Positions 1,392 to 57,935 of a DNA stretch of 57,935 nt are shown in pieces. The stretch spans positions 1 through 57,935 of IMG/VR virus record IMGVR_UViG_3300025872_000064; one strand, written 5' to 3'. The translations under genes were made by a program, and so were the position numbers. Origin of the DNA: a virus (Duplodnaviria; Caudoviricetes). The notes beneath the pieces were generated by a model. It saw only the letters and a list, made by a program, of their open reading frames with translations. It was not told the DNA's origin and did not search any database. Every line of letters starts with the position of its first letter. Positions within the stretch are counted from its first letter, which is position 1.

Positions 1392-1939
1392 GGCTTCACC
1401 ACATAGACCACCGGGCCTTCGATCACCACCTGCGCGTGGCCGATGAAGAACTCGTCAACAGCCGCCTTCGCGCCGGGGCAGCAGTCCTCGCCGTAGTCGT
1501 CGAACACGATGATGCCGCCGGGGACGACTTGCTCGTAGAGGAACTCCAGGCACGCGGCGTAGGACTCGTAGTTGTCGACGTCCAGGTGGACGAACCGCAG
1601 GCGGCGGCCGGCGAGAACGTCGCCCGTCTCGGCCGGGAATACGCCTGGGTAAACGCTCACCCGCTTGTCGCCGACAAACATATCCATGACCGCCACGGCG
1701 CTCGTGTCACTGAAGGAGCCAATGCCCCACCTTCCGTCCAGCGTCGGATCGTGATTCGGCATTCCCGTGAAGGTGTCGAACAGGAAGACCTTCGACTGTC
1801 CGGCGTTGTCGACGATTGCTCGAGCGCTGCCACCTTTGTAGACTCCGACCTCGACGATGTCGCCGTCGAGCTTGTCCGTCGACTCGAGGAGTGCCACGAG
1901 GCAGTCAAGTTTGTAGGCGTCAATCAGCGATTCACTCAT
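1388..1939 (-). CDS. TylF/MycF/NovP-family sugar O-methyltransferase
   Basis: GDIVEVGVYKGGS, FDTFTGMP, VHLDVD.Y, GGIIVFDDY. Confidence 0.9.
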   Translation of the reverse strand: MSESLIDAYKLDCLVALLESTDKLDGDIVEVGVYKGGSARAIVDNAGQSKVFLFDTFTGMPNHDPTLDGRWGIGSFSDTSAVAVMDMFVGDKRVSVYPGVFPAETGDVLAGRRLRFVHLDVDNYESYAACLEFLYEQVVPGGIIVFDDYGEDCCPGAKAAVDEFFIGHAQVVIEGPVVYVVKP

Positions 1940-2805: not shown

Positions 2806-3869
2806 ACTTTCTCCACATCGTTCTCGGTCAGGCTCGTGTGTGTCGGCAGGACGAGGCCGTATCGGTACAACGAATCGGCGGCGTATATGCGACGGCCTGT
2901 TCTCCCAGCCCGCTGCACATGCTGGAAGTGACAGACGGGAGGAAAGATCGGTCGCGTCTCGATGCCGTCCTCGCGCATCAGTCGCTCGACATGGCGGGCG
3001 TCCATCGGTCGTCCGTATTCCTTGACGACGGCGAACGCCCAGCACCCGTGCGTGTCGTCCTTCGCGACCTCTTGGCGGCGGAAACGGTCAGGCAGGCGGG
3101 AGTTGTACCAGTCGAATACCTGACGGCGCTTCTCCATGAACTCCGACAGGCGGGAGAGTTGCGCCACGCCGATGGCGGCCTGCACCTCGGTCATCCGGTA
3201 GTTCCACCCCAGCGCGTCGTGGACGTAGCGGGTCGCCGTCATCGCCTGGCCGGCGAGGTGGGCGATCCGCTCCGCGAAGAGCTTCTCCTGCGTGCCGACG
3301 GCACCGCCCTCTCCGGTCGTGATCGTCTTCGACCCGTAGAACGAGTAGCAGTTCATGTCCGCAGCCGGCGCCCACCCGCTGCGGAGGCACCCGATGCTTT
3401 CGGCGCAGTCTTCGATGATGACGATCCGCCGGCCCGTCGAGCGGTAGTAGTCGACCTTCCAGTCATTCAGCGACGGCGCCGGCACGCCGTACAGATGCAC
3501 GGGAATGATCGCCTTCGTCTTCTCCGTCACGGCCGCCGCCATCTCGTTCAGGTCGATCGTCCACGACCTCGGATCGACGTCCACAACCACCGGCTTTGCG
3601 CCGCAGTAGAGAACCGCGTTCACCGTGGCAACAAACGTCGTCGCTGGGACGATGACTTCGTCGCCACGACCGACGCCGGCCGCCAGGAGGGCCAGGTGCA
3701 GAGCGGCCGTGCCGCTCGAGACGGCGTGCATGTGGAGGCCGTTGATGCCGCCGAAGAGCCGCTCGAACTCAGCCACGACGGGGCCACGAGTCAGTTGACC
3801 GCCGCGCAGCACATCGAGCACAGCGGTTTCTTCCGCTACGCCGATGTCAGGTTGCCCGCAGTAGATCAC
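2769..3869 (-). CDS. DegT/DnrJ/EryC1/StrS PLP-dependent sugar aminotransferase (perosamine-synthase-like)
   Basis: SSGTAALHLAL, IIEDCAESIG, SFYGSKTITTGEGG, GWNYRMT. Confidence 0.93.
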   Translation of the reverse strand: MIYCGQPDIGVAEETAVLDVLRGGQLTRGPVVAEFERLFGGINGLHMHAVSSGTAALHLALLAAGVGRGDEVIVPATTFVATVNAVLYCGAKPVVVDVDPRSWTIDLNEMAAAVTEKTKAIIPVHLYGVPAPSLNDWKVDYYRSTGRRIVIIEDCAESIGCLRSGWAPAADMNCYSFYGSKTITTGEGGAVGTQEKLFAERIAHLAGQAMTATRYVHDALGWNYRMTEVQAAIGVAQLSRLSEFMEKRRQVFDWYNSRLPDRFRRQEVAKDDTHGCWAFAVVKEYGRPMDARHVERLMREDGIETRPIFPPVCHFQHVQRAGRTGRRIYAADSLYRYGLVLPTHTSLTENDVEKVCASLVKAASCS

Positions 3870-6164: not shown

Positions 6165-6415
6165 TTCTCAAACCTCACATACAGCGGCCCGTTCTCGCCG
6201 ACGTAGGCGCCGAGGGTGTTGAACGACAGAAACTCGTCTGCCTCCTCGGGCGTCATGCCGTCGCGCTCGACGAGAACGTCGATGCACTTCTCGATGTCAT
6301 AGACGGCGACGGTCGGGTGGTGGTGGTTCACGGTGTAGCCCACCAGGGCCGCCTCGAGGCCGTCGGCCAGCAGGGCGTCGGGGTTGAGTTCGGCGAGAAG
6401 TTCGAGCGTCGTCAT
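6161..6415 (-). CDS. Conserved phage hypothetical protein
   Basis: ADGLEAALVG..AVYD..GMT.EEA.EF.SFN..GAYVGE.GP pattern. Confidence 0.75.
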   Translation of the reverse strand: MTTLELLAELNPDALLADGLEAALVGYTVNHHHPTVAVYDIEKCIDVLVERDGMTPEEADEFLSFNTLGAYVGENGPLYVRFEK

Positions 6416-7548
6416 GCAAACAACCTCTCTCGCTCGACGGACTTGGCGATCCGCTCGTGCGCTAACTTGACGTACTCTGGATTCAACTCACACCCGACTC
6501 CGCTGCGGCCGAGTTTCGCTGCAACAGCAAGCGTCGTCCCAGAGCCGGCGAATGGGTCCAGCACAAGACACGGCACTGGCCTGTGCTCTTGACACTTGCA
6601 CGACGGCTGCCACCCTTTTGTCTCGACAGAGACTCCAGCGACGTCGTTCGCGCAGTGGTTTCCAGTACCCTCTTCGCCATGTCTCTTTGTGTAGGCATTG
6701 GGGCGTGGGCGTGTCAGTTCCTTTCGCTCCGTAATCCTGCCCCACGGCGATCCGCAGTGCGGACAGCAGCCCTCCTCGCTCGTGCCGGCGAGAACGCACG
6801 GCTCGACGAGGTCAGGCGGCATGGTTGCGAAGTGCGCGCCTTTGTAGGGCTTTGTCGTCACCGTCCAGACGGATCGACGGTTGCGGGTTGCCTTTTCCGT
6901 ATATGTACGCTCTTGTCTTTGTATTTTCGTCTCGCTCCCGTCAAGAACCCTCCGAGTCGCGTAGGGGATGTTTTTTGCGTCTTTATGCTTTGCTGTCTCG
7001 CTTACAGCAACCGAGTCGTAGTAATACCGCTCGCTCTTAGTCAGCATAAAAACGTACTCATGCGCCTTCGTGCAGCGATCACGCACGCTCTCTGGCATCG
7101 GGTTTGGCTTGTGCCAGATGATGTCCTGGCGCAGCCACCACCCGTCAGACTGAAGGGCGAAGGCGACTCGCCATGGGATGCCGACAAGGTCTTTGTTTTT
7201 CAGTGACTTGCACGAAAGGCCGTTCCCTTTTGGCAGTGAGGGGCACGCGACCTCTGTTGCTGCCTGGAAGGACGTAGAACCGCCACGATTCCCGTTGTAT
7301 GCGTTGTACGAATCCCCCAGGTTTACCCAGCAAGTCCCGTCCTCGCGCAGCACACGCCGCACCTCGCGGAACACCTCCACCATGCGGGCGACGTAGGCTT
7401 CCGGTGTGGACTCCAGGCCGATCTGCCCGTCATGGCCGTAGTCACGCAAACCCCAGTATGGCGGGCTTGTTACGCAGCAGTGGACGCTGTCGTCTGCGAG
7501 CGTCCGCAACCCTTCGATGCAGTCGCCTTGAATAATCCTGTGTTCCAT
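6412..7548 (-). CDS. Site-specific DNA methyltransferase (N4-C/N6-A, beta class)
   Basis: VTSPPYWGLRDY, DIIWHKPNPMPES, HFATMP, VLDPFAGSGTT; TGATG coupling. Confidence 0.95.
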   Translation of the reverse strand: MEHRIIQGDCIEGLRTLADDSVHCCVTSPPYWGLRDYGHDGQIGLESTPEAYVARMVEVFREVRRVLREDGTCWVNLGDSYNAYNGNRGGSTSFQAATEVACPSLPKGNGLSCKSLKNKDLVGIPWRVAFALQSDGWWLRQDIIWHKPNPMPESVRDRCTKAHEYVFMLTKSERYYYDSVAVSETAKHKDAKNIPYATRRVLDGSETKIQRQERTYTEKATRNRRSVWTVTTKPYKGAHFATMPPDLVEPCVLAGTSEEGCCPHCGSPWGRITERKELTRPRPNAYTKRHGEEGTGNHCANDVAGVSVETKGWQPSCKCQEHRPVPCLVLDPFAGSGTTLAVAAKLGRSGVGCELNPEYVKLAHERIAKSVERERLFA

Positions 7549-7784
7549 CACTCCATCGCCTCCCTGACCTTCCTCGCCACCTCGGGGCTGCGAAACCAGC
7601 CCACGCTCCACGCACACTTCCGCACATCCTCGTCGTCGCCGTGTCCAATCGCGTCCAACTTCGCCACCAGAAACATCACGTTCCGCTCGAGCCGCGCGAC
7701 TCGTTCTTTCGCTTCGTCAAGCCGCCGCCGCAGGCGGCTGTTGCCCTTGATGGCTCCGGTGAGTTCGCGGCGGTAAGTCTTCAT
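7548..7784 (-). CDS. Hypothetical coiled-coil protein
   Basis: ORF coupled to the methyltransferase. Confidence 0.6.
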   Translation of the reverse strand: MKTYRRELTGAIKGNSRLRRRLDEAKERVARLERNVMFLVAKLDAIGHGDDEDVRKCAWSVGWFRSPEVARKVREAME

Positions 7785-17119: not shown

Positions 17120-17974
17120 TTGTTCCTGCACCAGCTACTTGGCGATCTTTACGCCCCGTTGAAGGGGATCAGCGACCGCACCATTCGGCTCTACGGGATG
17201 ACGATCGGCAAGTATCGTCAATTTCTTGGCGGCGTCGAGCCGACAGTAGAGCAACACCTCGACGAACTCGAACTCGCCAAGTTCCTGGCCTGGCGTCTGA
17301 AGACGCGGTCGGTCGGGACGGCGGCGAAGGACAGGGCGCAGTTGCACGCGCTCGCAGAGTTCGCCGCCCGCCGTGGTCTATGCCCTTGGCCGCAGATGCG
17401 CACGATCCGCGTGCCGGAGCGGGTGCCTAGAGCCTGGCTGATCGACGAGTTCAGAAAACTCCTCGTCGCCTGCGATGGAGAGCAAGGCGAAACCTGCGGC
17501 GTGCCGGCGAGCCAATGGTTCCGCGCCATCCTCCAGGCCGCGTACTGGACGGGCGAGCGGATCGGAGGCCTGCTGGCGCTCGAGTGGTCGGACGTCGAGC
17601 CGCAGGCGGTGATCTTCCGCGCCGAGGGGCGGAAGGGGCAGCGGGCCGACATCTACCGGCCGATCCCTCCCGAGTGCTACGAGGCCATCATGGCGACCAA
17701 GACGAGGCGGAAGATCGTCTTCGACTGGGATCGCAGCTACACCCTCATCTGGCACCGCCTCGGCCGCATCTGCGAGCGGGCGGGCCTACCCAATGACCGG
17801 ATGAGCAAGTTCCACCGCGTGAGGAAGACGTCGGCCTCATACTACGCCGCAGCCGGCGGCGACCCGCAGACGCTGATGGGTCACTCGAGTCCGGCCGTCA
17901 CGAGGAAGTACCTAGACCCGAGGATCGTGCGGCCCGACACAAACGCGCCCGACGTCCTGCCGAAAGTCAGTTAG
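17120..17974 (+). CDS. int: Tyrosine recombinase/integrase
   Basis: TGERIG (R), GRK (K), FHRVRK (HxxR), MGHS, TRKY (Y). Confidence 0.9.
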   Translation: MFLHQLLGDLYAPLKGISDRTIRLYGMTIGKYRQFLGGVEPTVEQHLDELELAKFLAWRLKTRSVGTAAKDRAQLHALAEFAARRGLCPWPQMRTIRVPERVPRAWLIDEFRKLLVACDGEQGETCGVPASQWFRAILQAAYWTGERIGGLLALEWSDVEPQAVIFRAEGRKGQRADIYRPIPPECYEAIMATKTRRKIVFDWDRSYTLIWHRLGRICERAGLPNDRMSKFHRVRKTSASYYAAAGGDPQTLMGHSSPAVTRKYLDPRIVRPDTNAPDVLPKVS

Positions 17975-21306: not shown

Positions 21307-21864
21307 CTATACCACCATTGTAGCGGCCTGTAGCCGGCTCATTGCGGCATCGACGGCGGTCTGGAGGGCGAAAATCCCACCGTCGTTGACGATCTCGTCG
21401 TCGACGTATTCGTCGGGAATGCCGCGCTCGCTCTCGTGGCTCGCCGCTTCGCCGTCCAGAACGCCGAAGCCGGGGCGCACCACCCGCCACACGACGCCGC
21501 CGCGGGCCTTGATAGCCGCCGCCTCGTTGGGGAAGCGGACGTCGGTGATGCAGAAATTGACCCCCGGCGAGGACTCGATCTTCTGCATCGTCGCCATGAC
21601 CCAGATTTCCTCGTGGATCATCTTCCGGCCCCACTCGGTGCCGAGGGTCTGGAGAAGTTTCCGTGGGGAGGCGTCGAGCCAGCCCAGCGGCTGCTCCTTT
21701 CGGCTCCGATCCTGCAACTCCTCGACCGTCAGCCCGGTGATCGCCGACACGGCCTCGTAGATCGGATCGGCAAACGCCAGCGGCACGAACTTATGCTCCA
21801 GGCACAGGCGCTCCGCAACCGTGTTCTTCCCCGCCCCGGCCGCCCCGCAGAGTCCAATGATCAC
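21307..21864 (-). CDS. Deoxynucleoside monophosphate kinase
   Basis: IIGLCGAAGAGKNT, FADP, PRKLLQTLGTEWGR, ITDVRFPNE, HESE. Confidence 0.92.
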   Translation of the reverse strand: MIIGLCGAAGAGKNTVAERLCLEHKFVPLAFADPIYEAVSAITGLTVEELQDRSRKEQPLGWLDASPRKLLQTLGTEWGRKMIHEEIWVMATMQKIESSPGVNFCITDVRFPNEAAAIKARGGVVWRVVRPGFGVLDGEAASHESERGIPDEYVDDEIVNDGGIFALQTAVDAAMSRLQAATMVV

Positions 21865-22364
21865 AGCGTCATCTCCTGGCCGTCGAATCGGATCGTCACC
21901 CCCAGCGGCTCCGCGAGCCACCGCATACTGACGTTCGCCTCGCGTAGCATGGCCTCGGCCTTGACGATGCTTGCCGTCCACCGCTCCGGTGTCGCGGCTC
22001 GCGGCCGAACATGGCCGACGACCTCGGTGATCCCGGCCACGATGATCGCCCTGGCGCAGTCCATGCAGGCGAACCAGGGGCAGTAAAGCGTCGCCCCCAG
22101 CGTCGGCGTGCCGACTCGCGCGGCCTGATAGATCGCCATCCGCTCCGCGTGTTCGATGTAGTCATATTTCGCCGGCCGCGCGAGCCGATCCGGCGCCGCC
22201 CACACTCCCGCCGGCACCTTGTTGATCCCGACGCAGACGTAGGCCGCGGCCCGCGGCACCAGGATCGCGCCGTTCTGGGTGTGCATGTCGTGGCTTCCGG
22301 CAGCGGCCTCCTGGGCGGCGATGCGGAGCCAGTCGAGCGGGGTGTTGTGGTGCAGGGTAGCCAT
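21861..22364 (-). CDS. dCMP deaminase
   Basis: HAERMAI and ACMDCARAII zinc motifs. Confidence 0.88.
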   Translation of the reverse strand: MATLHHNTPLDWLRIAAQEAAAGSHDMHTQNGAILVPRAAAYVCVGINKVPAGVWAAPDRLARPAKYDYIEHAERMAIYQAARVGTPTLGATLYCPWFACMDCARAIIVAGITEVVGHVRPRAATPERWTASIVKAEAMLREANVSMRWLAEPLGVTIRFDGQEMTL

Positions 22365-45405: not shown

Positions 45406-45850
45406 TGACCACCTTCACCGCACCGTACCCGAGTCGGGTGCGGTCGGCTGGGGTGAGGCCCAGGACGGTTTCCAGTTGCCGTAGCTGCTCGTGGCAATGG
45501 TTGCTCTGGGCCTGCCACTTCGTCGGCCGGCAGAACCGCAGGGAGCCGTCGGGGGCGAGAACTTCTCGCCAGCACTCGCCGGTCTTGGCGAGTTGCTGTT
45601 CGGCCTCTTGCCACTTATCCCAGACGATCGCGTATCGCGTGATCACCTGGGTGTCAGAGTTACATAACGTCCCCATCTGCTGTGTAAACTCGCAGACGAG
45701 ACGAAACATTGCCTTCGCCGAGGGCCGCAGCCACTCCGGCGGCTCGGGCAGGGCGGTAGCCGGCGTGCCGAGTTCCTCGCGGTACTTGGCATCTTTCGAC
45801 CCTCTCATCGAGAGGATGTGCTTCGGCGTTGGTGCTGGGCCTCTGACCAT
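45362..45850 (-). CDS. terS: Terminase small subunit (P27 family)
   Basis: RGPAPTP, PPEWL, LGLTPADR. Confidence 0.9.
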   Translation of the reverse strand: MVRGPAPTPKHILSMRGSKDAKYREELGTPATALPEPPEWLRPSAKAMFRLVCEFTQQMGTLCNSDTQVITRYAIVWDKWQEAEQQLAKTGECWREVLAPDGSLRFCRPTKWQAQSNHCHEQLRQLETVLGLTPADRTRLGYGAVKVVNDPVDALFDDAATG

Positions 45851-46217
45851 GACACCAGCGTAGGCTCTCGAGCGCCGCTGCCGCAAAGGAGTCCAGAAAA
45901 CGTCGAAAATCGCGGCGAATAGCCGTGATTTTCCAGTTTCGCGAAAGGCGAAAATTGCCGGGGAGCAAATAGGTCATACCTCCGCGAATCCGCGTGGCTG
46001 GGGACAAGCGGTCTGCCGCCCGATCGCCCCCGACGGCGTATCCCCCACCCGTAGGGGGTGTTGTATTTTCCCCACGATTCCCGCGGCAGATGATGCGCCG
46101 CCGCGCGGCGCGCCTTGATTCGTAGACTTCCGGCGCCGTTGTCGCATCTGCTAAGTGTCCGGCCCGAAAATAATTTGAGCCGGCGCGCAAGGCTTGCCGA
46201 TTGGCAGCGTATGCTAG

Positions 46218-46247
46218 TTGACAGCCGGACATCCGGCAGGGTACATT
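46218..46247 (+). promoter_or_regulatory. Sigma70-like promoter for the early gene array
   Basis: TTGACA-18 nt-TACATT. Confidence 0.55.
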
Positions 46248-46302
46248 GAATCAAGCCGCGGCGGAAACCGCGGCCGATACCTTGAAACGGAGAATTGAGA
46301 AT

Positions 46303-46542
46303 ATGAAACGGGCAACCTACAACGGTATGCGGGAGGAACTAGCGCATATCATCGGCGACGTTCGCATACTGTCGGGCGAGATTGTCGGGCCGTCTGATGC
46401 GACATGGCAGGACGTCGCGGGTACGCTTGCTGTCAACTTGCGTTGCCTTGCTGCCATGCTGGAAGAATGGCGCAAGGGTAACGCTGAACCGTTCTGTAGT
46501 TTTCCCGGATTGGACGACGTTGGAGTTGATGCCCGAGGCTAA
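46303..46542 (+). CDS. Hypothetical early protein
   Basis: ORF after TTGAAACGGAGA leader. Confidence 0.6.
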   Translation: MKRATYNGMREELAHIIGDVRILSGEIVGPSDATWQDVAGTLAVNLRCLAAMLEEWRKGNAEPFCSFPGLDDVGVDARG

Positions 46543-46620
46543 CTTGCAAGCCGAGACTATCCGCCGCGGCGCGTTGCCGCGGCGGGGGACGATTGAAACC
46601 TGAAACGGAGAGTTTTTACC

Positions 46621-47007
46621 GTGGAAACCTATAGCCCCTTCATAATTTCCGCCCGTCTTTTGCCAGCCGTTGACGTCGCCGGCGCGACGGTATCGGTTGA
46701 CCCGACAAGCAACCGCGACCACTACGGGAAGCCGGAGTGGCGCTACTTTATCGACCTACCCGACGGAACCGAGCACACTGGCGGAGAGCTTTACGGGTGG
46801 GGGGACGCGGGGGAAATGCTGGAAACGCTTTTGGCGTTTCTCGGCGCTTGCGGGGAAAGCGTTAACTACCGCGACAGGACAGGCCGCGGCGGGGAAAACG
46901 CCGACATTTTTCCGCCCGAGGTTGCGGCATGGTGCGCCGCTAATTCAGACGCGCTTTCGGTTGCGTCTTTTGAGTGTGAGGAAGCAAACCGCGCGCGGCG
47001 GGAATAG
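46621..47007 (+). CDS. Hypothetical early protein
   Basis: GGAG RBS; LL.FLGACGES, FP..VA.W. Confidence 0.7.
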   Translation: METYSPFIISARLLPAVDVAGATVSVDPTSNRDHYGKPEWRYFIDLPDGTEHTGGELYGWGDAGEMLETLLAFLGACGESVNYRDRTGRGGENADIFPPEVAAWCAANSDALSVASFECEEANRARRE

Positions 47008-47114
47008 TCCGGCCGCCACCGCAACCCCACGGCGCCCGCGGCCGTGGGGCGACGGTGGCGGCCCGATGGCCGGGCCGCCCGAACGTGGAAACCTTGAAAC
47101 GGAGACGGGAAACA

Positions 47115-47462
47115 ATGCTGCCAACCCCGAAAACAATCGCGGCCCGTATCGGCTGCCCGATGGAAACCGCCCGCGCTATCCGCCGGGCGATTGAAGCGCA
47201 CGAGCGCAGCGGCGCCCCGTTCGCGGCCGGAACCCTAGACGCTATCTCGGAAATACTGGGGCCGGGGGCATACGGGGCAGAGCTTATCCGCCCCGGCGAC
47301 GGGCCGCGGTCCCATTCGATTGAATACGTCAACCGTGGGGACACTTATGACCCCACGATTCTATATCTCGACGGCGTTTCCCACGGCGGCCGGGCGACGG
47401 GCCGCGGGCGGTGGGCAGTGGGAACGTGGGGAGACATAGTGGAACGGGGGCGCTACGAATAA
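47115..47462 (+). CDS. Hypothetical early protein
   Basis: YVNRGDTYDPTI...GTWGDIVE. Confidence 0.7.
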   Translation: MLPTPKTIAARIGCPMETARAIRRAIEAHERSGAPFAAGTLDAISEILGPGAYGAELIRPGDGPRSHSIEYVNRGDTYDPTILYLDGVSHGGRATGRGRWAVGTWGDIVERGRYE

Positions 47463-47562
47463 ACCGCCCGGCTCCCCCGCAACCGGCGCCGCCCGCGGGC
47501 GCCGGCGACGGGGGCGCCGCGCGGCGCCCGGAACGTGGAAACGTGGAAACGGAGTCTAGATC

Positions 47563-47871
47563 ATGCAAACCGAACCCCTACGCTATCTTCGCGACGTCGC
47601 GCCGGATGCGAAAATCTATCGTTCCCCAGTCCGGCCCGACGGGTGGGGGGGAAACTATCCGGGACAGGGCGCCGACGGGTACGGGCGGAAAATATCGACG
47701 GACTACGTCGCCCGATACGGGGGGCGTACCCGACGGGTCTACGTTTGCCAATTCTCCAACGCTGGCACGGCCTACGTTATCGACGGGGGGCGGTGGGCAA
47801 TCGTCGATAACCTCCCGCTAGACGTTCCGCCGCTGCCGCCCGAGTATCGCGGGCGGATTGTCGCCCGATAG
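47563..47871 (+). CDS. Hypothetical early protein
   Basis: GYGRKI.T.Y...GR.RRVY..QFSNAGTAY. Confidence 0.7.
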   Translation: MQTEPLRYLRDVAPDAKIYRSPVRPDGWGGNYPGQGADGYGRKISTDYVARYGGRTRRVYVCQFSNAGTAYVIDGGRWAIVDNLPLDVPPLPPEYRGRIVAR

Positions 47872-47970
47872 CGCCGGCCCCGCGCTAACCCCCGGCCGTG
47901 GAAACGGGCGGGGGCGTGCGCGCGGCCGCCGCGGTGGCGACCCCGATTGTGGAAACGGGAGGAAATGACG

Positions 47971-48342
47971 ATGGAAACGGAAACGGTACATTGTGACGGT
48001 TGCGGCGCGGATTGCGTCCCCACGGGTTGCACAACCGGATACGGGCGAACGGCCGACGGGCGGCGGTTGTGCTTTTCATGCTGCGACGCGCGAGAACGGG
48101 CGGATTTTGCGGCGGCCGATACATACTGCGCGTACGTCTCCGGCGACGGCCGGAGTATTTCAACGTGGCCGGGGGGCAAGCTGGCAACCGTAACCTATTC
48201 CCGCCGCCACCGTGGCGGTTTCGGTGGGGAGTATTTCACGGTTGATGCCACGGCGCCCGACGGTAGCCGCTGGTACGGGCGGGGCGGCGGCCCCGGTATG
48301 TTCGTCCGGCTGAAACGGCGCAAGGCTACAGGCCGAGCATAA
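47971..48342 (+). CDS. Hypothetical early protein with Zn-finger-like Cys pairs
   Basis: CDGCG, TGYG, CFSCC, STWPG; GGAGG RBS. Confidence 0.7.
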   Translation: METETVHCDGCGADCVPTGCTTGYGRTADGRRLCFSCCDARERADFAAADTYCAYVSGDGRSISTWPGGKLATVTYSRRHRGGFGGEYFTVDATAPDGSRWYGRGGGPGMFVRLKRRKATGRA

Positions 48343-48471
48343 CCGGCCCCGCGGCGCCCCCCGACGGTGGAAACCGGCGGGGGCAACCGCGGGGCCGTCA
48401 ACGGGCGGCCCGTTCGTGGAAACCGGCACGCGCCGGCACGGGGGGAATTTATCTATCGGGAGGGTTTCACA

Positions 48472-48699
48472 ATGCGGAAAGTATCGCGGTACGATTTTGG
48501 TTGCGGGGCCGTGGAGAGAATCGCCCGGCCGGCGGGGGAAGCGACTATTACGATGGAGCACGGCGCCTATATCGTCCGGCGGGCGCCGTGGCATACCGCC
48601 GGATACCGTGTGGTGCCGTGCCGTACCGTCCGGGAGGCGCGGCGGCTTGCGGCCGCGCTTGCGGCTGGGAAGCCGGCCGAGCGTAGGGGGGACCGCTAA
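48472..48699 (+). CDS. Hypothetical early protein
   Basis: GGAGG RBS before ATG. Confidence 0.6.
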   Translation: MRKVSRYDFGCGAVERIARPAGEATITMEHGAYIVRRAPWHTAGYRVVPCRTVREARRLAAALAAGKPAERRGDR

Positions 48700-48824
48700 A
48701 CCGCCCCGCCCGCAACCCCCGTCCGGCGAAACCGGCGGGGGCGACGGGCGGGGCGCCAACGTGGCGCCCCCGTTCGTGGAAACCGACGGCCGATCGGCCG
48801 CCGGATTAGTGGGAGACTGTACCT

Positions 48825-49055
48825 ATGGAAAACTGGAAACTAGAGCGCGCCGGATGCGGGCGCTACCATGTTCGCGGCGCTGACGGCTACCGTCGGGCGG
48901 GTGTGATTCTGGGCGGAAACCGCCGCTACCTTGTCGAGATAGCCGGCCGAACGTGGCCGGGATATTTTCCGTCGGCGCGGGCCGCCGGGGCGGCGCTTGT
49001 CAATCATCACAACACGGCGCCCGGCGGCTGGCCGGTCGTCCATCCAGCACAGTAA
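48825..49055 (+). CDS. Hypothetical early protein
   Basis: GGAG RBS before ATG. Confidence 0.6.
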   Translation: MENWKLERAGCGRYHVRGADGYRRAGVILGGNRRYLVEIAGRTWPGYFPSARAAGAALVNHHNTAPGGWPVVHPAQ

Positions 49056-49175
49056 CCCCCGGCCGTGGAAACCGAAAGCAACCCCGTCCGTAACAACCCC
49101 GATTCTCACAATCCCAAGTGTCCAACAATCGCAAACACCGGAGAAAGCCGCCAAAAACTTTTTTTGTTGACGTAG

Positions 49176-49204
49176 TTGACAGCGTATTGCCGAAAGCGTA
49201 TTGT
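49176..49204 (+). promoter_or_regulatory. Sigma70-like promoter with overlapping direct repeat
   Basis: TTGACA-17 nt-TATTGT, A/T-tract UP-like element, AGCGTATTG x2. Confidence 0.75.
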
Positions 49205-49273
49205 ATCCCGTGCGGCCGAGGGCAGCGTAGCCCCGGCCGTGGAAACGATTACCCCGAGTGGAGGAACGCGACG

Positions 49274-49549
49274 ATGGGATACGTTGGAAACGCGATGATT
49301 GAACTGGCCGAGGCGGGCGCGGTCATGGCCGAGATGGCCGAGGTGCAGGCGTGGCGGGCTGCCGGCCACACCGTGCCGCTGGTGTGGGTTGAGGTCGATA
49401 CCTACCGTGGCCGGCGCAATATGCCTGCCATGACCCTGGAGACGGCCGAGCGGCTCGCCGGCTGCCTGGACGACGAGGAGGCCCGCGAGGCGCTGCGGCA
49501 GGCCGTGGCGGATGCCCGAAGCTACCGGAAGATGGTCGGTCGCGACTGA
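49274..49549 (+). CDS. Hypothetical protein
   Basis: GGAGG RBS; follows promoter. Confidence 0.65.
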   Translation: MGYVGNAMIELAEAGAVMAEMAEVQAWRAAGHTVPLVWVEVDTYRGRRNMPAMTLETAERLAGCLDDEEAREALRQAVADARSYRKMVGRD

Positions 49550-49640
49550 CGCCGCCAGCCGCCCCGGCTCGTTGCCTGGGCGGTGCGATGATGGGATGAT
49601 TCACCACAACCCCCGTATGGGGGAACGAGAGGAGACGACG

Positions 49641-49889
49641 ATGACCGACCGATTCAAGTTCCTGGCCGTGCGCCGCGCCGGCCGTGTGGCGATCGTGCGT
49701 GTGCTGCACAGCGGCGAGGTGGCCGGCTACGATCCCGTGGCCGACCGCGAGCAGCGGCAGCGGCACTTCAAGATTCACCGCGGGCCTGCGGCATACGATG
49801 CTGCCTTCGGCGACTCGCGGCAGTATGACAGCCTGAAAGATGCCGTGGCCGACGCGGCAGTGTCCGGTCGGTGGGTCGAGACTGCCTGA
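49641..49889 (+). CDS. Hypothetical protein
   Basis: GAGGAG RBS. Confidence 0.65.
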   Translation: MTDRFKFLAVRRAGRVAIVRVLHSGEVAGYDPVADREQRQRHFKIHRGPAAYDAAFGDSRQYDSLKDAVADAAVSGRWVETA

Positions 49890-49961
49890 CCACCGGCCCG
49901 TAGAAACCAGAGTTCGATTCCACCCTGCCGCCCCGTGCGGCGAAACCAGAGGAGAGGGACG

Positions 49962-50207
49962 ATGAAGAAGACACAGATGCTAACGATTCGAAACGCTGAA
50001 GTGCGAATCGTAGACAAGATGGTTGCGGTCGTGTTCAACAAGTGGCAAGAGCACGAGGTTGCGATGATGAACACAGGATTCGGCCCCGTCGCAGATCGGG
50101 CGGTGCTGCGGTCCATCAAGGAATCCGGCGCTGCGAACTGGAGCGATGACGAGATCGCGAAACTGGCTCACCACATCGAGGAGCGGGCAATCCTGTCCGG
50201 TTTGTGA
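49962..50207 (+). CDS. Hypothetical protein
   Basis: GAGGAGAGG RBS. Confidence 0.6.
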   Translation: MKKTQMLTIRNAEVRIVDKMVAVVFNKWQEHEVAMMNTGFGPVADRAVLRSIKESGAANWSDDEIAKLAHHIEERAILSGL

Positions 50208-50392
50208 TGCAAAACCGAGTCTCACCATACGAAGCCGGCTGGCTCACGTTCCTTGTCCAGCAGCGGATGGCGACGGCCTCCGAGGCCCGCGAGGCGCAGA
50301 ATCGCGTGGCACAGGACGCCGTCCGCGAACTTGAGGAGCGTCTGCGACAGCGCCGGCTCGAGCGCAGGCGGAAAAAACGCGAGGAGGACTAG
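50204..50392 (+). CDS. Hypothetical basic protein
   Basis: GTGA coupling. Confidence 0.5.
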   Translation: MMQNRVSPYEAGWLTFLVQQRMATASEAREAQNRVAQDAVRELEERLRQRRLERRRKKREED

Positions 50393-50463
50393 GCTACTGG
50401 CCGATAGTCAGCGTAGGCTACTGGCCGTGATACGGGACCGTGAAAACCAGCAGGAGCAGAACC

Positions 50464-50766
50464 ATGAAGATCGAAGGGTTCAACGACGGGGATCGTGCCT
50501 GGGCGGCGTCGGTGTACGTCAAGGACGGGCTGGGCAGCGAGCCGGCGTCGGCGCTGGCCTATGCCAGCGAGGTGACGATCGTGATGGCGGCCGGGGGCAT
50601 CGTGCAGGAGGACGGTCGGCCGCCCCGCGTCAGCGGAGTCGGCGAGACGTTCCACCAGACGCAGCAGCAGGCCCGAGAGTGGGCGGCGGCTGAACTCCGC
50701 AGGAGCGCCGCCAACCTGTACCGGCAGGCCGAGGAACTGGCCGAGCCGCGCGTGGTGACCGTATGA
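50464..50766 (+). CDS. Hypothetical protein
   Basis: AGGAG RBS. Confidence 0.6.
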   Translation: MKIEGFNDGDRAWAASVYVKDGLGSEPASALAYASEVTIVMAAGGIVQEDGRPPRVSGVGETFHQTQQQAREWAAAELRRSAANLYRQAEELAEPRVVTV

Positions 50767-51035
50767 TCTGCCTCGTTCGAGATACCTGGAGGGCCGTGCT
50801 CGTCGTGGTCGTCGCCGTGCTGCTTCGCGGAGTCTTCGCGGAGCGGCCGGCGGCGCTGCCGGCACCCGTGGCCCCTGCGTGGCAACCGGCGGCCGTCCAG
50901 TGGTCGCCCCCGACCGTGGCAACCGGAGCGTGGCAACCCATGCCCGCCCCGGCCGTGGAAACCCAAGGCCCGATTCGCCGTGTCGCCAGAGAACTCGTAG
51001 ACTTGTCCGAAGCCGTTTTAGGAGTGGTTCGATGA
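50763..51035 (+). CDS. Membrane-anchored Pro/Ala-rich protein
   Basis: N-terminal TM helix; WQP repeats; ATGA coupling. Confidence 0.55.
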   Translation: MICLVRDTWRAVLVVVVAVLLRGVFAERPAALPAPVAPAWQPAAVQWSPPTVATGAWQPMPAPAVETQGPIRRVARELVDLSEAVLGVVR

Positions 51036-51379
51036 ACATCAATACTGACGACTGGTTTCCGCTCGCCGACATTGAGCAGCACTCGAAAACGCTGCGGCAG
51101 CGGACGGCGTATCGCCTCGCCGAGGAACTGCGGCTCATCCATGTGTTCTTCGGCGTGAAGTGCATCCGTAAGGCCGACGTTCATACCCTCGAGTCCAATC
51201 GCCGGCCGCTGGGGAACCGGCAATGGATTGAGTCCTATGAGGCCGCGGCGGCGGCGGCAAAGGCTGCCAACGCAAGCAAGAGCCGCAGGCTCAAAGATGC
51301 AGGGCCGACGCAGGCAGAGAAGAAGCGGAACGCCGGGCTGCGGACGCTCGCTACAAAGACTCGCGGGCAGTCTTCCTAG
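51032..51379 (+). CDS. Hypothetical basic (possibly DNA-binding) protein
   Basis: AGGAG RBS; ATGA coupling. Confidence 0.55.
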   Translation: MNINTDDWFPLADIEQHSKTLRQRTAYRLAEELRLIHVFFGVKCIRKADVHTLESNRRPLGNRQWIESYEAAAAAAKAANASKSRRLKDAGPTQAEKKRNAGLRTLATKTRGQSS

Positions 51380-51665
51380 AGTGGCACCGCCGGCACAATA
51401 GCTGCAACCCCGACAGCGGCGTGGCCTCTGCGGCCTCGTTGACGGGCTTGGCGACAACGTGATCTATCTGACTGTCTCCAGCCCGGTGGCAGACCTTGCC
51501 GCATTCGCGGCAGCAGCCGCCGTCACGGGCGATGACGGCCTTCCGCACCCGCTGCCATGCGGCCGAGCCGTACCCCCGTTCGTGGGAACTGGCGCGGGCC
51601 TGGGCGGCCTCCGTCCGGCGAAACGAGCCGAAGCGTGGCCTAAAGGTTGGGATTCTGCGCGGCAC
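51351..51665 (-). CDS. HNH endonuclease (HK97 gp74-like packaging nuclease)
   Basis: RGYG..W..VR..V..RD..C..CG, IDHV, LQLLC..CHSRKT. Confidence 0.9.
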   Translation of the reverse strand: MPRRIPTFRPRFGSFRRTEAAQARASSHERGYGSAAWQRVRKAVIARDGGCCRECGKVCHRAGDSQIDHVVAKPVNEAAEATPLSGLQLLCRRCHSRKTARESL

Positions 51666-51978
51666 TCGACCACCCGACCAGGAGAACGCGATGGCTCTCG
51701 CGGGCGAACCACCACTCGATCACCAGTTTGATGACCGCCTGCGCGAGCATCGACAGGAGGAACATGGCGACGACGCTGCCGTATCGCTTCCGCAGGCGCA
51801 CCGAGACGCGGGCCTTGACCACCTCTTCCAGGCGATCCGATGGGCAGCCGGCAGGCCACTCCTCGACGATCATCTCCACGATGCGGTCGCGGAGCGGGCC
51901 GTGCATAGCCAGCCGCATTCCGCCGCGTTTTGCGATGTATGCCTTCAGCGGGCGGTAGACCGAATCACTGGCGGGCAT
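51640..51978 (-). CDS. Hypothetical membrane-associated protein (start uncertain)
   Basis: YGSVVAMFLLSMLAQAVIKLVIEWW helix. Confidence 0.6.
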   Translation of the reverse strand: MPASDSVYRPLKAYIAKRGGMRLAMHGPLRDRIVEMIVEEWPAGCPSDRLEEVVKARVSVRLRKRYGSVVAMFLLSMLAQAVIKLVIEWWFARESHRVLLVGWSSAAQNPNL

Positions 51979-52283
51979 GTGCCGCTCGTGCATGGTGCGT
52001 CCTTTGTCTTTTCCTTCCCGGTTCCATCGCACGCGGCGCAGACCACTGACACGGTTCCATCGCCGAGGCGGCCCTTGCCGCCACACGCGCTACAGACCCC
52101 CGCAGGGCCGGGCTTCGGCGCCGGCGTCGGGCCGACGGCCGCCGACCACACGCCGTAGTTGCCGGTGACGGCGATGAGCGGCTGGAGATTCTCCTTCACG
52201 TTCTGCTCGACGCACCCGACAACCGCGGCGGCGATGATCGCGACAATGGCGACGCCCACGGCGTCAACGACGAGCCATCTCAT
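51945..52283 (-). CDS. Lipoprotein-like protein with DnaJ-type Zn finger
   Basis: Hydrophobic signal ending VVGC; CSACGGKG...CAACDGTG. Confidence 0.65.
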   Translation of the reverse strand: MRWLVVDAVGVAIVAIIAAAVVGCVEQNVKENLQPLIAVTGNYGVWSAAVGPTPAPKPGPAGVCSACGGKGRLGDGTVSVVCAACDGTGKEKTKDAPCTSGTCPPVIRSTAR

Positions 52284-53278
52284 ACGTTCCCCTTCGCACC
52301 GTAGGTCGTCTGCCGGCGTCGCGGCCACCCGGCGACGCTCGAGAGGGCAATGTTCTGGGCGCGGTCGATGGTGCTCGCCAACGCCCAGTAGGCACCATCG
52401 GGAATCTCCAGGTCGGTGCCGCGCACCTTCCGCGGGCCTTTGTTCCACTTGTTCCAACTGTTCAACCAGCACACGAGCGCCTGCCCGTACTTCTGGTGCG
52501 TCTCTGGGCGATCGTCATAGCCGATGTAGCACTGGCTGTGCTGCCAGACGCCGATCTGCCTGCTGAAGCCATCCTCGTTTCGCGTCCGCTCGAAGCCCAT
52601 CGACGAGCAGTTGAAGATTCCGTAGCCCTGAAAGAGGAAGTCGCGCACGGCCTCCCGGCCCTTCAGGAACGTCGCCGTGCGGGCGATGTGTTTGCTCGAC
52701 TCCGCGAGCCACTTGTCGCCGGGCAACTTCTTCCCGCCGAGGCGGATCGTCTCTTCGGTGTAGCGAGTGAGGTCGAAGCCGAGTTCTTGGTACGGCTTCC
52801 GCACCAGGAACCCGCGCGTCGTCGCCGTCTGCGCAGCGGCGGAACAGAACCACCCGTCGCCGTCGAAACCACGCCACGCGAACAGGCTCTCGCTCGCGAC
52901 CGGGATATTGAGGATGCCGTCGCGCGGCAGTTCCGGTGCGACCTCGACCTGGCCGGTGACTTCGTCTGGGCGGCCGTCGTTGATCTCGAGCGCGAGGCTC
53001 ATCAGCAACCCGTTTGCGCATCCTTTGCTGACACAGTCGCCCCATAGTTGCGTCGGGCCGGGCCAGCAGCCGGGGAACACGCTGTCGACGACGGGCGAGA
53101 GGAGGATCAGTTTGCCTTTGCCGGCGTCCGCGAACTCCCACTCATTGGCGACGTCGGAGCCGTCTGGGTTGCCGCCCCTGCGGATGATGGAGTCGGCGAA
53201 CTGCTCGTCGGCCTGGGGGTTCGGCCGGCAGCCGGCGAACCCACGCGAGTAGGCATCAAGTGGATCGAAATTACTCAT
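52280..53278 (-). CDS. Papain-like (C1 family) cysteine peptidase
   Basis: Q.WGDCVS (Gln, Cys), WQHSQCYIGYDD (His), LNSW (Asn), DGAYW. Confidence 0.78.
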   Translation of the reverse strand: MSNFDPLDAYSRGFAGCRPNPQADEQFADSIIRRGGNPDGSDVANEWEFADAGKGKLILLSPVVDSVFPGCWPGPTQLWGDCVSKGCANGLLMSLALEINDGRPDEVTGQVEVAPELPRDGILNIPVASESLFAWRGFDGDGWFCSAAAQTATTRGFLVRKPYQELGFDLTRYTEETIRLGGKKLPGDKWLAESSKHIARTATFLKGREAVRDFLFQGYGIFNCSSMGFERTRNEDGFSRQIGVWQHSQCYIGYDDRPETHQKYGQALVCWLNSWNKWNKGPRKVRGTDLEIPDGAYWALASTIDRAQNIALSSVAGWPRRRQTTYGAKGNV

Positions 53279-53753
53279 GGCCGATGCCGAGGCTCCATGA
53301 GAGCACGCCGCACGCCGCCACAAGCCTCGAGCCGACCTTCTCGTCGATCTTTTGCACCTCGGCCCCGCAGGCGTTGATGAACGTCTCGTCGATGGCTTCG
53401 GCGAGGCCGGAGTACTTGCCGACGTTGGCCTTGTCGATCGCCAGACGCAGCGAGCCGCCGTGGAAGTTGGCGAACTGCTCCGTCGAGCCGATGATTGGAA
53501 GTTCACGCTGCCGGTCGCGGATCAGGACGAACGCCATCGCGTCATAGAACGCCGCCAGGTACTGCCGGTCTTTCGGCAGCATCTTCGGCAGGATCGGCCG
53601 CAGCGGTTCGGCCCACTTGAGCAACTCCGCATCGGGCTGCGGCGTGTTGATGTTCTCGTGCGGGGCAGGGGGCCACGGCATGGAGAGGTCGGAACCCTTC
53701 CAGGCGAAGAAGAGAAGCACGGCCGCCACGATCCACCTCGCGTCGATCTTCAT
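53271..53753 (-). CDS. Membrane-anchored hypothetical protein
   Basis: N-terminal TM helix plus Pro linker. Confidence 0.65.
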   Translation of the reverse strand: MKIDARWIVAAVLLFFAWKGSDLSMPWPPAPHENINTPQPDAELLKWAEPLRPILPKMLPKDRQYLAAFYDAMAFVLIRDRQRELPIIGSTEQFANFHGGSLRLAIDKANVGKYSGLAEAIDETFINACGAEVQKIDEKVGSRLVAACGVLSWSLGIGHE

Positions 53754-56936: not shown

Positions 56937-57773
56937 CTACGCCACGTCCATCGGCAACGCTTGTTGCGCCAGCCGTTTCCTGCTGATCTCGACGTATTCA
57001 GGGTTCACCTCGATCCCGATGAACCTCCGCCCCGTCTCACTCGCCATCATCGCCGTCGTGCCGCTGCCGCTGAATGGGTCGAGCACCACGTCGCCTGAGT
57101 TGCTCCAGCTCACGATATGGTCGCGGGCCAGCCGCTCAGGAAACTGTGCTGGATGAAACCTCTTGCGGCTGCTCGTCTCTGGTGCCACGTTCCAAACATT
57201 GAACCGTATTCCGTGCTCTGCCATCCGCTTCCCTTCATGTGATTTGCGGATCAGATCACCGCTCGGCAGGCGAATCGTTCCAGCCTTTCCGATTGCACCA
57301 GCGTAAACGTTCTTCCGATCCCGAATCGGGTTGAACGTCTTCGGCTTTCCTTTGCTGAAAACGAGCATGTATTCACTGCTCGGCCCGTATCGAACACGAA
57401 CCGACCCTACTCCAGTGAAGCACCCTTTGTTCCAGATCATCGTGTCGTGAAGTCGCAGGCCGATTCCCTTGAAATGCAGCGCCTGCGAAAAACTCGTCCC
57501 TGTCTCGTCGCCGTCTTTCGTCTCGTCGTTGACCACCCACACAATGACCCCGCCCGGCTTAAGCAGCCGCTTCAGATTCCACGCCACCCCGTAGAAATCC
57601 CACGAGTGGCCGCCGTAGGTGCGAAGGTCATCGTATGGCGGGCTCGTCACCACGAGGTCAATCGACTCGCTCGGCATCTGCCGCATCACTTCGCAGTTAT
57701 CCCCGCAAATGATTTGATCCAGCGGGAGAGAACCAGCCGATGCAACGGACGGCCCTGCTACGTCATGTGTCAT
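56937..57773 (-). CDS. Site-specific DNA methyltransferase (N4-C/N6-A, beta class), carried as a gene cassette
   Basis: VTSPPY, HPAQFP, VLDPFSGSGTT; GAGGA RBS and ATG lie inside attC 5. Confidence 0.93.
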   Translation of the reverse strand: MTHDVAGPSVASAGSLPLDQIICGDNCEVMRQMPSESIDLVVTSPPYDDLRTYGGHSWDFYGVAWNLKRLLKPGGVIVWVVNDETKDGDETGTSFSQALHFKGIGLRLHDTMIWNKGCFTGVGSVRVRYGPSSEYMLVFSKGKPKTFNPIRDRKNVYAGAIGKAGTIRLPSGDLIRKSHEGKRMAEHGIRFNVWNVAPETSSRKRFHPAQFPERLARDHIVSWSNSGDVVLDPFSGSGTTAMMASETGRRFIGIEVNPEYVEISRKRLAQQALPMDVA

Positions 57774-57815
57774 GGTGAGTCCTCTGGTGGCCGCCGTTGA
57801 TCTTCCGTGTTCTCT
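57727..57815 (+). repeat. attC-like recombination site 5
   Basis: AGAGAAC-CAGCC-GATGCAACGG...CCGTTGATC-TTCCGT-GTTCTCT. Confidence 0.85.
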
Positions 57816-57935
57816 CACTTCGTCCGTTCAATCAACGCCCGCAGCGTGGACACGACATTCGCCTCGCGCCTTTCATCATCGGCGTCTGCTTTGTCGCAAA
57901 GAGCAGCACACTCGCAAGTGAATATCGCTTCCTCA
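57815..57935 (-). CDS. 3' part of a small hypothetical cassette protein (...STLRALIERTK*)
   Basis: Open frame from the window end to a TGA abutting R' of attC 5. Confidence 0.6.
   Translation of the reverse strand, partial: EEAIFTCECAALCDKADADDERREANVVSTLRALIERTK

Follow-up and report, generated by a model that had tools for sequence, protein, structure and literature searches.

A family of covarying two-tier hairpins between consecutive early genes in a Caudoviricetes lineage

The stretch of DNA analyzed here, called the window, is the complete IMG/VR virus record IMGVR_UViG_3300025872_000064, a Caudoviricetes genome of 57,935 bp that is scored at 100% by CheckV and carries no terminal repeats. 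Small genes of unknown function on the + strand, which run in the opposite direction to most genes of this phage, fill positions ∼46.2–51.4 kb. A PHROG family is matched by two of the ten small genes in this early block, and a Pfam family above threshold by none. A promoter scan of 45500–52500 returned only two good sigma-70-like promoters, both on the + strand and each heading a unit of early genes (Table 1), together with a third promoter-like site at 48466 that overlaps a start codon. Five hairpins separate the six genes of the first unit, and the same scan found no promoter-like site inside the spacers that hold them. This arrangement shows that the hairpins lie inside a predicted operon headed by a host-type promoter. 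Judged by comparison with relatives, the five are members of a phage-lineage-specific family of sense-strand RNA stem-loops, each of which forms part of a composite intergenic spacer that we call the module.

The composite spacer is ∼80–100 nt long and consists, in order, of a stop codon, 1–5 nt, a two-tier hairpin, a second and smaller hairpin, a 16-nt motif, ∼20 nt that include a Shine-Dalgarno sequence, and the start codon of the next gene. The two-tier hairpin has a lower stem of 5–11 bp, a 3×3 internal loop, an upper stem of 8–10 pairs, and an apical loop of 4–7 nt. An initial annotation of this DNA had described five GC hairpins after consecutive stop codons, and all five were located where it had placed them (47011–48755), starting 0–3 nt past the stop codons at 47005–07, 47460–62, 47869–71, 48340–42, and 48697–99. 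Its further description of the spacers also held. Three hairpins have the internal loop CAA/CGA, one has UAA/CGU, and one has a flipped CGC/CAA; the conserved motif that it had reported ahead of a ribosome-binding site is present, with a purine-rich Shine-Dalgarno sequence and a start codon, in five of five spacers; and a T-run follows none of the five hairpins, as its claim of no U-tail requires. A terminator scan found no + strand terminator-like site at the five hairpins, and its sole match there was a weak one on the − strand (47486–47468).

When folded alone, the five hairpins reach −46.8 to −49.2 kcal/mol with z scores of −2.9 to −5.95, and only 0–1 of 200 dinucleotide shuffles per hairpin fold as stably. 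In three of the five spacers, 3–7 nt belong both to the second hairpin and to the 3′ arm of the lower stem, which suggests that the two structures compete for those bases. The Rfam search proposed in the initial annotation gave no match at the gathering score anywhere in the window. Relaxing the threshold to E values up to 5 for 46200–51500 produced two chance-level matches, neither of which falls on a hairpin.

Relatives of the phage were collected by a TerL search of IMG/VR, which gave 80 loci at 72–99% identity. The 408-aa protein encoded at 52280–53506, used as a query for wider relatives, gave three loci only, and a blastn search of GenBank phages with 46000–50000 gave no match. A pattern scan for hairpins with the upper stem CCCCCG...CGGGGG yielded 25 matches in 20 stretches, and 23 of the 25 matches have the same context of stop codon, hairpin, second hairpin, motif or variant, Shine-Dalgarno sequence, and start codon. 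A covariance model was then trained on 30 modules, all of this CCCCCG...CGGGGG class, and run with filters off over the window, where its three training copies score 70–85 bits. The model also recovered, on the + strand, the two untrained copies with a GCCCGCG loop, at 47012–47092 (36 bits, E 6.6e-6) and 47470–47542 (30.6 bits, E 9e-5). No other match below E 1e-4 was found on either strand of the 57,935 nt. The E values are rough, and the search covered the window and 28 related loci.

In these 28 loci (304,536 nt), the model found 50 matches at E values up to 0.001. Forty-six are on the gene strand, in 22 of the 28 loci, and the other four are antisense images of strong sense matches. There are no matches in six relatives that are without a motif cluster in the stretch searched. 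The modules total 51, and 49 of them stand at the end of an open reading frame (ORF) that is at least 50 codons long; in 46, the stop codon and the module are 1–7 nt apart. All 51 have a start codon and a Shine-Dalgarno site downstream, 8–66 nt past the motif. A loop-anchored pattern for IMG/VR, GCAA-N8/9-GCCCGCG-N8/9-CGAC, gave at least 116 random-looking matches, with paired arms in one among the matches listed.

Covariation, which the initial annotation had named as a check on its proposal, is seen in the stems beneath the conserved loops. In the alignment of 30 modules, six of the ten lower-stem pairs vary on both sides (21 cells). The covariation score of the lower stem is 0.144 versus 0.037 for shuffled alignments, and it is reached by none of 500 shuffles; registers slid out of place score 0.011–0.049. 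The GCCCGYG-loop class includes at least 10 hairpins with differing 8-bp stems, in which seven of eight pairs vary on both sides, and here the score is 0.817 versus 0.192 when shuffled (0 of 500 shuffles reach it). Contexts of GCCCGNG are closed by at least 6 bp in 12 of 231 cases, versus a background of 0.41%. Every one of the 18 distinct apices folds into a mini-hairpin, with the stems CGGC/GCCG, CGGU/ACCG, CCGU/ACGG, CGUG/CACG, and UCGU/ACGA. The apical loop is of the GNRA type in eight of the 18 (GGAA, GCAA, or GAAA), and the rest are GGCA, GCAG, CGAAA, AAA, and AGA. Minimum-energy folds of the 100 nt upstream of 149 distinct motif contexts contain a symmetric two-tier hairpin in 25, among which the internal loop is CAA/CGA in 18 and the flipped form in two. 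These patterns show that the predicted hairpin structure is under selection.

The initial annotation had read the element as an undescribed structured RNA or single-stranded DNA. The structured element stands, and a sense RNA is now favored over single-stranded DNA of either strand. In the antisense RNA, the bubble (UCG/UUG) largely closes and the fold becomes more stable, and GNRA-type apical loops occur on the sense strand only. The covariance model likewise assigns 70–85 bits to sense copies versus 22–24 bits to antisense images, which is a sense preference of ∼50 bits. Together with the tie of the hairpins to stop codons, these features point to the sense transcript, and thus to sense RNA rather than single-stranded DNA of either strand as the probable acting molecule. 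The fact that an A-rich bubble is kept argues against selection for mere stability or for a cruciform in the DNA.

The breakpoints of gene swaps between relatives fall at the module, as the initial annotation had proposed to check, and a role as a gene-shuffling unit is the only one of the roles it listed that has been demonstrated directly. The window and the related locus L029 have just three segments in common in 46.2–49.1 kb, namely a spacer at 47465–47543 (90%), gene 4 with its flanking spacers at 47921–48451 (90.6%), and a spacer at 48687–48785 (96%), and the genes between these segments are unrelated. The junctions fall at 47465, within 47509–47543 / 47921–47956, and at 48451, 48687, and 48785. 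Relative to L029, the window has an extra cassette of ∼405 nt, both ends of which lie in the second-hairpin/motif part of the neighboring spacers. In L011, an additional gene and module are inserted just 5′ of the homologue of the gene at 49641. These alignments show that the apparent cassette junctions fall at the module.

A wider comparison used pairs of modules from different contigs with at least 85% identity over at least 60 nt (79 pairs, 23 contigs), for which the 250-nt flanks were compared. By blastn, neither flank is similar in 67 pairs, only the upstream flank in six, only the downstream flank in three, and both in three. The corresponding tblastx counts are 66, six, four, and three. 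Modules between unrelated genes are 85–99% identical. The conservation of the spacer independently of the adjoining genes shows that early-gene cassettes are exchanged at the spacer.

The sequence GTGGAAAC, with which the 16-nt motif ends, is present in 12 copies in the window against an expectation of 1.45. All 12 are on the + strand within 46621–50955, and the count is reached by none of 100 shuffles. A profile of 148 motif contexts contains a single contiguous block, CCCCGAnC-GTGGAAAC, and no other conserved block between −50 and +60. In six related records, the forward and reverse copies number 11/0, 6/1, 5/1, 10/0, 17/0, and 11/1, and they are clustered where the early block is present. 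The motif also follows sigma-70-like promoters at a distance of ∼35 nt, with a small leader hairpin in between (49176–49246 in the window, and in several relatives), and it occurs in tandem arrays with a spacing of 15–47 nt, and both GTGGAAAC and GTGGCAAC form the apices of several two-tier hairpins. These locations argue against an ordinary promoter and for either a site in the transcript or an oriented operator. A literature search for the bare motif gave primer matches only.

The tandem arrays are made of the motif variants GTGGCAAC, GTAGAAAC, ATGGAAAC, GGGGAAAC, and GTGGAAAC, each after CCCCGNNC. They are located at 50850–50962 (+) in the window, at ∼15560–15700 in L011 and ∼13949–14040 in L039 (both reverse complement), and in the first 200–540 nt of records G001 and G003. 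The array of the window lies within the open frame 50763–51035, with its motif copies in differing reading frames. Such an array looks like a multi-site binding region of an iteron- or sponge-like kind. A direct repeat, TAGGCTACTGGCCG, is present at 50390–50403 and 50414–50427 in the gap before the gene at 50465, followed by a variant, GTGAAAAC. After some hairpins with the GCCCGCG loop (modules of L219 and L232), a second leader type, GATTGGTC(G)AAAC..CTGGAAACGGAGAC, takes the place of the 16-mer. The related forms ATTGAAACCTGAAACGGAGAG and TTGAAACGGAGAC are found in the window at 46590–46612 and 47093–47105, and GAAAC placed directly against the Shine-Dalgarno sequence is a recurring theme.

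Table 1. Features of the first early operon and the head of the second, in window coordinates
Feature	Positions	Strand	Description	Values or basis
Promoter, operon head	46218..46247	+	sigma-70-like, TTGACA-18-TACATT	10/12 consensus positions
Hairpin in first intergenic gap	46560..46586	+	simple, 11 bp; then ATTGAAAC/CTGAAAC variants and Shine-Dalgarno sequence	fold of 46543-46625
Early gene 1	46621..47007	+	128 aa, phrog_21648, unknown function	
Two-tier hairpin 1	47011..47063	+	11 bp / CAA-CGA / 9 bp / loop GCCCGCG	-46.8 kcal/mol, z -5.95; model 36 bits, outside training set
Second hairpin after hairpin 1	47057..47079	+	8 bp; 7 nt in common with 3′ arm of hairpin 1	sequence reading
16-nt motif	47077..47092	+	GCCCGAAC-GTGGAAAC	
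Early gene 2	47115..47462	+	115 aa, no family	
Two-tier hairpin 2	47464..47524 (extended); 47474-47514 (core)	+	core 6 bp / CAA-CGA / 8 bp / GCCCGCG	-49.2 kcal/mol; model 30.6 bits, outside training set
Second hairpin after hairpin 2	47512..47529	+	7 bp, loop GCGC; 3 nt in common with lower stem	sequence reading
16-nt motif	47527..47550	+	CCCGGAAC-GTGGAAAC and a second, tandem GTGGAAAC	
Early gene 3	47563..47871	+	102 aa, phrog_3436; cassette missing in relative L029	
Two-tier hairpin 3	47871..47932 (extended); 47881-47922 (core)	+	core with UAA/CGU; upper stem CCCCCG...CGGGGG; apex CCGU-GGAA-ACGG	-49.1 kcal/mol; 75.7 bits
16-nt motif	47941..47956	+	CCCCGATT-GTGGAAAC	
Early gene 4	47971..48342	+	123 aa; common to L029, ~90% identity	
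Two-tier hairpin 4	48344..48397	+	11 bp / CGC-CAA (flipped) / CCCCCG...CGGGGG / apex CGGU-GGAA-ACCG	-47.4 kcal/mol, z -5.6; model 70.5 bits
Second hairpin after hairpin 4	48400..48414	+	6 bp, loop CGG	fold
16-nt motif	48408..48423	+	GCCCGTTC-GTGGAAAC	
Early gene 5	48472..48699	+	75 aa; unrelated gene in its place in L029	
Two-tier hairpin 5	48702..48755	+	11 bp / CAA-CGA / CCCCCG...CGGGGG / apex CCGG-CGAAA-CCGG	-48.1 kcal/mol, z -5.68; model 84.8 bits
Second hairpin after hairpin 5	48750..48770	+	9 bp, loop ACG; 6 nt in common with lower stem	sequence reading
16-nt motif	48768..48783	+	CCCCGTTC-GTGGAAAC	
Early gene 6	48825..49055	+	76 aa, final gene of first operon	
Second promoter	49176-49204	+	sigma-70-like, TTGACA-17-TATTGT	
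Leader hairpin, then motif copy	49239-49246 (motif copy)	+	GTGGAAAC, within predicted 5′ untranslated region of the 49176 promoter	

Our best explanation, which we hold tentatively and with somewhat less than even confidence, is that the module acts as a sense-strand element that punctuates the polycistronic early transcript, as a processing or 3′-stabilizing site, and that its DNA also serves as a recombination linker. In this role, the hairpin would block 3′ exonucleases, be cut by a double-strand-specific endonuclease, or do both. Its 11 + 3 + 9–10 stacked positions amount to about two helical turns. RNase III substrates are described as spanning about two helical turns, for which coaxial stacking may contribute, and as having an internal loop that restricts cutting to one strand and leaves a protective 3′ hairpin (PMC1540722). 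If an endonuclease acts on the module, then the bubble would restrict cutting to one strand, as in the early RNase III sites of phage T7. If cutting took place on the 3′ side of the bubble, a hairpin would remain at the 3′ end of the upstream message. The same cut would free the 3′ arm of the lower stem, which could refold as the second hairpin where the downstream message now begins, and this refolding would explain the overlap between the two hairpins. At the DNA level, the conserved spacer would offer a homology patch for recombination, much like the promoter-early stem-loops (PeSLs) of T4-type phages.

Several points weigh against this explanation or soften the evidence for it. The stems are almost all G–C, and G–C pairs in the proximal box prevent Escherichia coli RNase III from binding or cutting its substrates (PMC1540722); such stems are disfavored by the E. 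coli rule, and the host enzyme may differ. No RNase III domain was found to be encoded by the phage, and among the sequencing runs on record none of RNA type is listed as containing 46200–49300. Selection of the data enters some of the results, since the GCCCGYG set was chosen for at least six closing pairs and the upper stem is invariant in the CCCCCG set because that set was chosen by this very pattern. The 79 module pairs are not independent, and many copies are related by descent, so the shuffle tests are inflated, with the direction of the result still clear. G–U and A–C cells in the lower stem number eight versus seven, and therefore wobble pairs give no strand call. Furthermore, a pure exonuclease barrier would leave the conserved CAA/CGA and GCCCGYG loops unexplained, and a sequence-reading protein would fit them better.

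A protein of that kind, from phage or host, might use the hairpin as its binding site in the style of boxB/N, a coat-protein operator, or an iron-responsive element. It could serve in antitermination or in the translation or decay of a neighboring cistron, and the 16-mer would be an additional site, for this or a different factor. Conserved loops on covarying stems are the usual signature of such sites (CAA/CGA in 18 of 25 hairpins; GCCCGYG on 10 stems), the occurrence of GTGGAAAC/GTGGCAAC both in apical loops and as the free motif suggests one reader, and the isolation of the 16-mer as a single block is consistent with this. However, none of the 40 window ORFs with Pfam results has an RNA-binding or helix-turn-helix domain, and to our knowledge antitermination sites occur once per operon, not after every gene. 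On balance, we consider a protein-binding site unlikely but a serious rival to the processing or stabilizing role. It is distinctly unlikely, in our judgment, that the module is a PeSL-type cassette in which the hairpin is a U-less terminator or attenuator and the 16-mer is a promoter for a phage-made or alternative specificity factor. The order of parts described for PeSLs (stop codon, stem-loop, motif, Shine-Dalgarno sequence, start codon) is matched, together with cassette swaps (PMC2839356), and the orientation of the motif is strictly that of the genes. Nevertheless, the missing T-run speaks against termination, and the 16-mer has neither a sigma-70 −35/−10 pattern nor a partner block at a fixed distance. 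Its positions ∼35 nt downstream of good sigma-70-like promoters and in tandem arrays with 15–47 nt spacing also argue against a promoter, and Pfam scans of the window found no RNA polymerase or sigma gene.

A role in DNA only appears quite improbable. The 16-mer would then be an oriented operator, of which the stoperators of Cluster A mycobacteriophages are an example, and the hairpins would be cruciform or recombinase sites, or the module would be a small mobile element between genes. The asymmetric motif, found in intergenic gaps and in arrays, strictly follows the direction of transcription; modules are conserved although their flanks are unrelated; and a tyrosine integrase makes a prophage state with a repressor possible. 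On the other side, no repressor was recognized among the window genes, and the bubble and the GNRA-type loops are sense-strand features. Covariation, as seen in the apical stems, would not be required of a double-stranded DNA operator, and the module does not travel with the upstream ORF (similar upstream flank in nine of 79 pairs). We regard as highly improbable the idea that copies in the early transcript act as decoys or anti-repeats that disturb the processing or loading of host CRISPR RNA while punctuating the operon. It was raised by the last 9 nt of the motif (CGTGGAAAC), which equal the conserved terminal 9 nt of a widespread family of 36-nt CRISPR repeats. One of 401 Planctomycetota genomes has an 18-repeat array with a 36-nt repeat ending in CGTGGAAAC (G300:C17:604-1900, L249-L255). 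At least 119 metagenome stretches match as well, and 63 of 74 parsed arrays among the matches listed end exactly at CGTGGAAAC (L256-L335). Genes for Cas3, GSU0053, GSU0054, and a Cas4-Cas1 fusion adjoin array L315, and a Cas4-Cas1 fusion adjoins L277, which is the gene set of type I-U/I-G.

The similarity is confined to these 9 nt, however, and the phages lack the 5′ half of the repeat, which has three matches in the phage group at up to three mismatches, none beside the motif. A second apparent 9-nt match, CGTGGCCCC, occurs in just seven of 149 contexts. In both arrays adjoined by cas genes, these genes run toward the array on the opposite strand, so the transcribed repeat probably begins with the complement of the motif and ends elsewhere. 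None of 1658 spacers in arrays among the matches listed matches the phage group beyond 18–21 nt, and the Planctomycetota array has no cas genes within 16 kb. Because GAAAC is the ending of many CRISPR repeat families, the match has limited specificity. The module was also rejected as a CRISPR or solitary repeat unit in its own right, for which the whole repeat would have to be similar rather than the terminal 9 nt alone. As a separate observation, the conserved ends of the 36-nt repeat family frame a covarying hairpin.

The explanation as a transcript-punctuating element and recombination linker can be set beside systems that are already described. The RNase III sites R0.3 to R1.3 of T7 lie between early genes. 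Like the module, each is a long hairpin that spans about two turns, is interrupted by an internal loop, and stands between consecutive small early genes of an operon that has a host-type promoter, and none has a terminator tail; a cut in the loop would leave a protective 3′ hairpin. The module differs in its near-pure G–C stems, its symmetric 3×3 bubble with conserved CAA/CGA, its start 0–3 nt past the stop codon, and its coupled 16-nt motif, and cleavage of the module is predicted only. REP elements protect upstream mRNA from 3′ exonucleases, and REP/BIME sequences resemble the module as imperfect G+C palindromes without a T-tail just past stop codons within operons. They are chromosomal, present in hundreds of copies, and linked to RAYT transposases, whereas the module was found in the phage group only. 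The lack of a T-run after the hairpins sets the module apart from intrinsic terminators. Integron attC sites travel with the upstream ORF, have conserved core sites, and have an integron integrase nearby. A reading of the module as attC was rejected because it does not travel with its upstream ORF. The sole integrase of the phage is 29 kb away among structural genes, and the attC core-site consensus was not searched.

Two phage systems resemble the module in layout. PeSLs keep the spacer while the genes change (PMC2839356; PMC4122927). Each is a composite intergenic element of ∼100 nt that extends from a stop codon to the next Shine-Dalgarno sequence and includes a G+C stem-loop (PMC2839356). 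As with the module, PeSLs lie among small unknown genes and mark insertions, deletions, and replacements between relatives (PMC2839356; PMC4122927). Each PeSL, however, contains a strong sigma-70-like early promoter, and its stem-loops have been shown to terminate transcription (PMC2839356; PMC4122927). A further PeSL trait is the formation of mini-circles by recombination. The five spacers of the window have no sigma-70-like promoter and no T-run, and they carry two-tier covarying hairpins and another motif. The absence of a sigma-70 promoter from each element indicates that the module is not a PeSL. The phages also differ, since PeSL hosts are T4-type and the phage in the window has an HK97-type head module and is not T4-like.

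The SAS/ESAS elements of Cluster K mycobacteriophages resemble the module in having an asymmetric motif that stands in one orientation before many non-structural genes (PMC3203893). Inverted repeats stand before about half of the SAS copies (PMC3203893), and a two-tier hairpin stands before 25 of 149 motif copies here. In both cases, the elements are conserved before genes of different families, and SAS has no known function (PMC3203893). The SAS motif is 13 bp long, includes the ribosome-binding site, and lies 3–8 bp upstream of the start codon, and a consensus sequence is shared by its inverted repeats (PMC3203893). In contrast, the 16-mer lies 8–66 nt before the start codon, apart from the Shine-Dalgarno sequence; the stems of the module covary beneath conserved loops, and its hairpin is anchored to the upstream stop codon. 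The motif and the spacing differ, and therefore the module is not SAS. By analogy, the closest functional counterparts of the module would be T7 RNase III sites or REP elements for the RNA and PeSLs for the DNA, and its layout recalls SAS/ESAS. On these comparisons, it belongs to none of the PeSL, SAS, intrinsic terminator, Rfam family, or attC classes, and it is likened to the RNase III class by geometry only.

Elsewhere in the genome, Pfam scans identified minus-strand genes for the small and large terminase subunits, portal, prohead protease, HK97-type capsid, and head-tail connector, as well as Prim-Pol, a UvrD-type helicase, an SNF2 helicase, and DNA methylases. A gene for a XerC/D-like tyrosine integrase (17120–17974, +) is isolated among minus-strand genes, and given this enzyme the phage may be temperate. 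The phage also carries genes for a TylF-like methyltransferase, an ATP-grasp enzyme, and a DegT-type aminotransferase, which could serve in sugar or DNA modification, along with two N6/N4 DNA methylases and a dCMP/cytidine deaminase. These genes are located at 1388–3869, 6412–7617, 56937–57818, and 21861–22364, all on the minus strand.

In many related contigs, TerL starts ∼500–720 nt from the contig end, and the early block is at the opposite end of the record from TerL in three complete or nearly complete records. This layout suggests that a physical genome end or an assembly break is probably near 45.9–46.1 kb of the window. A stretch at 45964–46079 is ∼80% conserved in relatives, and 46042–46058 is the sole canonical-looking terminator (hairpin plus T-run) near the early block. 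Between the two early units, a conserved block, GATTCTCACAATCCCAAGTGTCC, occupies 49101–49123 just 5′ of an A/T run and the second sigma-70-like promoter, and it recurs in L011, L029, L030, and L039.

A TerL search of genome contigs identified one phage-like contig of 9.9 kb that is binned in a metagenome-assembled genome (MAG) of the Planctomycetaceae. The host of this uncultured freshwater lineage is possibly in the Planctomycetota, for which a single MAG-binned contig is a weak hint. The motif sequence CCCGNNCGTGGAAAC is absent from the MAG with the TerL-bearing contig and present in 73 of 401 Planctomycetota genomes. Among the 87 Planctomycetota matches, the 15 examined are single coding-like occurrences or one coding tandem repeat and are never part of a module, which indicates that the motif is not a general signal of the phylum in the genomes searched.

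Phage early regions are rich in small unknown genes, and their expression and exchange have been detailed for only a few model phages. The spacer described here makes the idea of linker sequences for modular gene exchange directly testable beyond the T4 family. The module is also a compact and portable RNA element with clear targets for mutation in its bubble, its apical loop, and the 16-mer. Should a nuclease or a protein turn out to act at the bubble, the module would represent a new RNA family for Rfam and would provide a marker for early operons in metagenomic phages.

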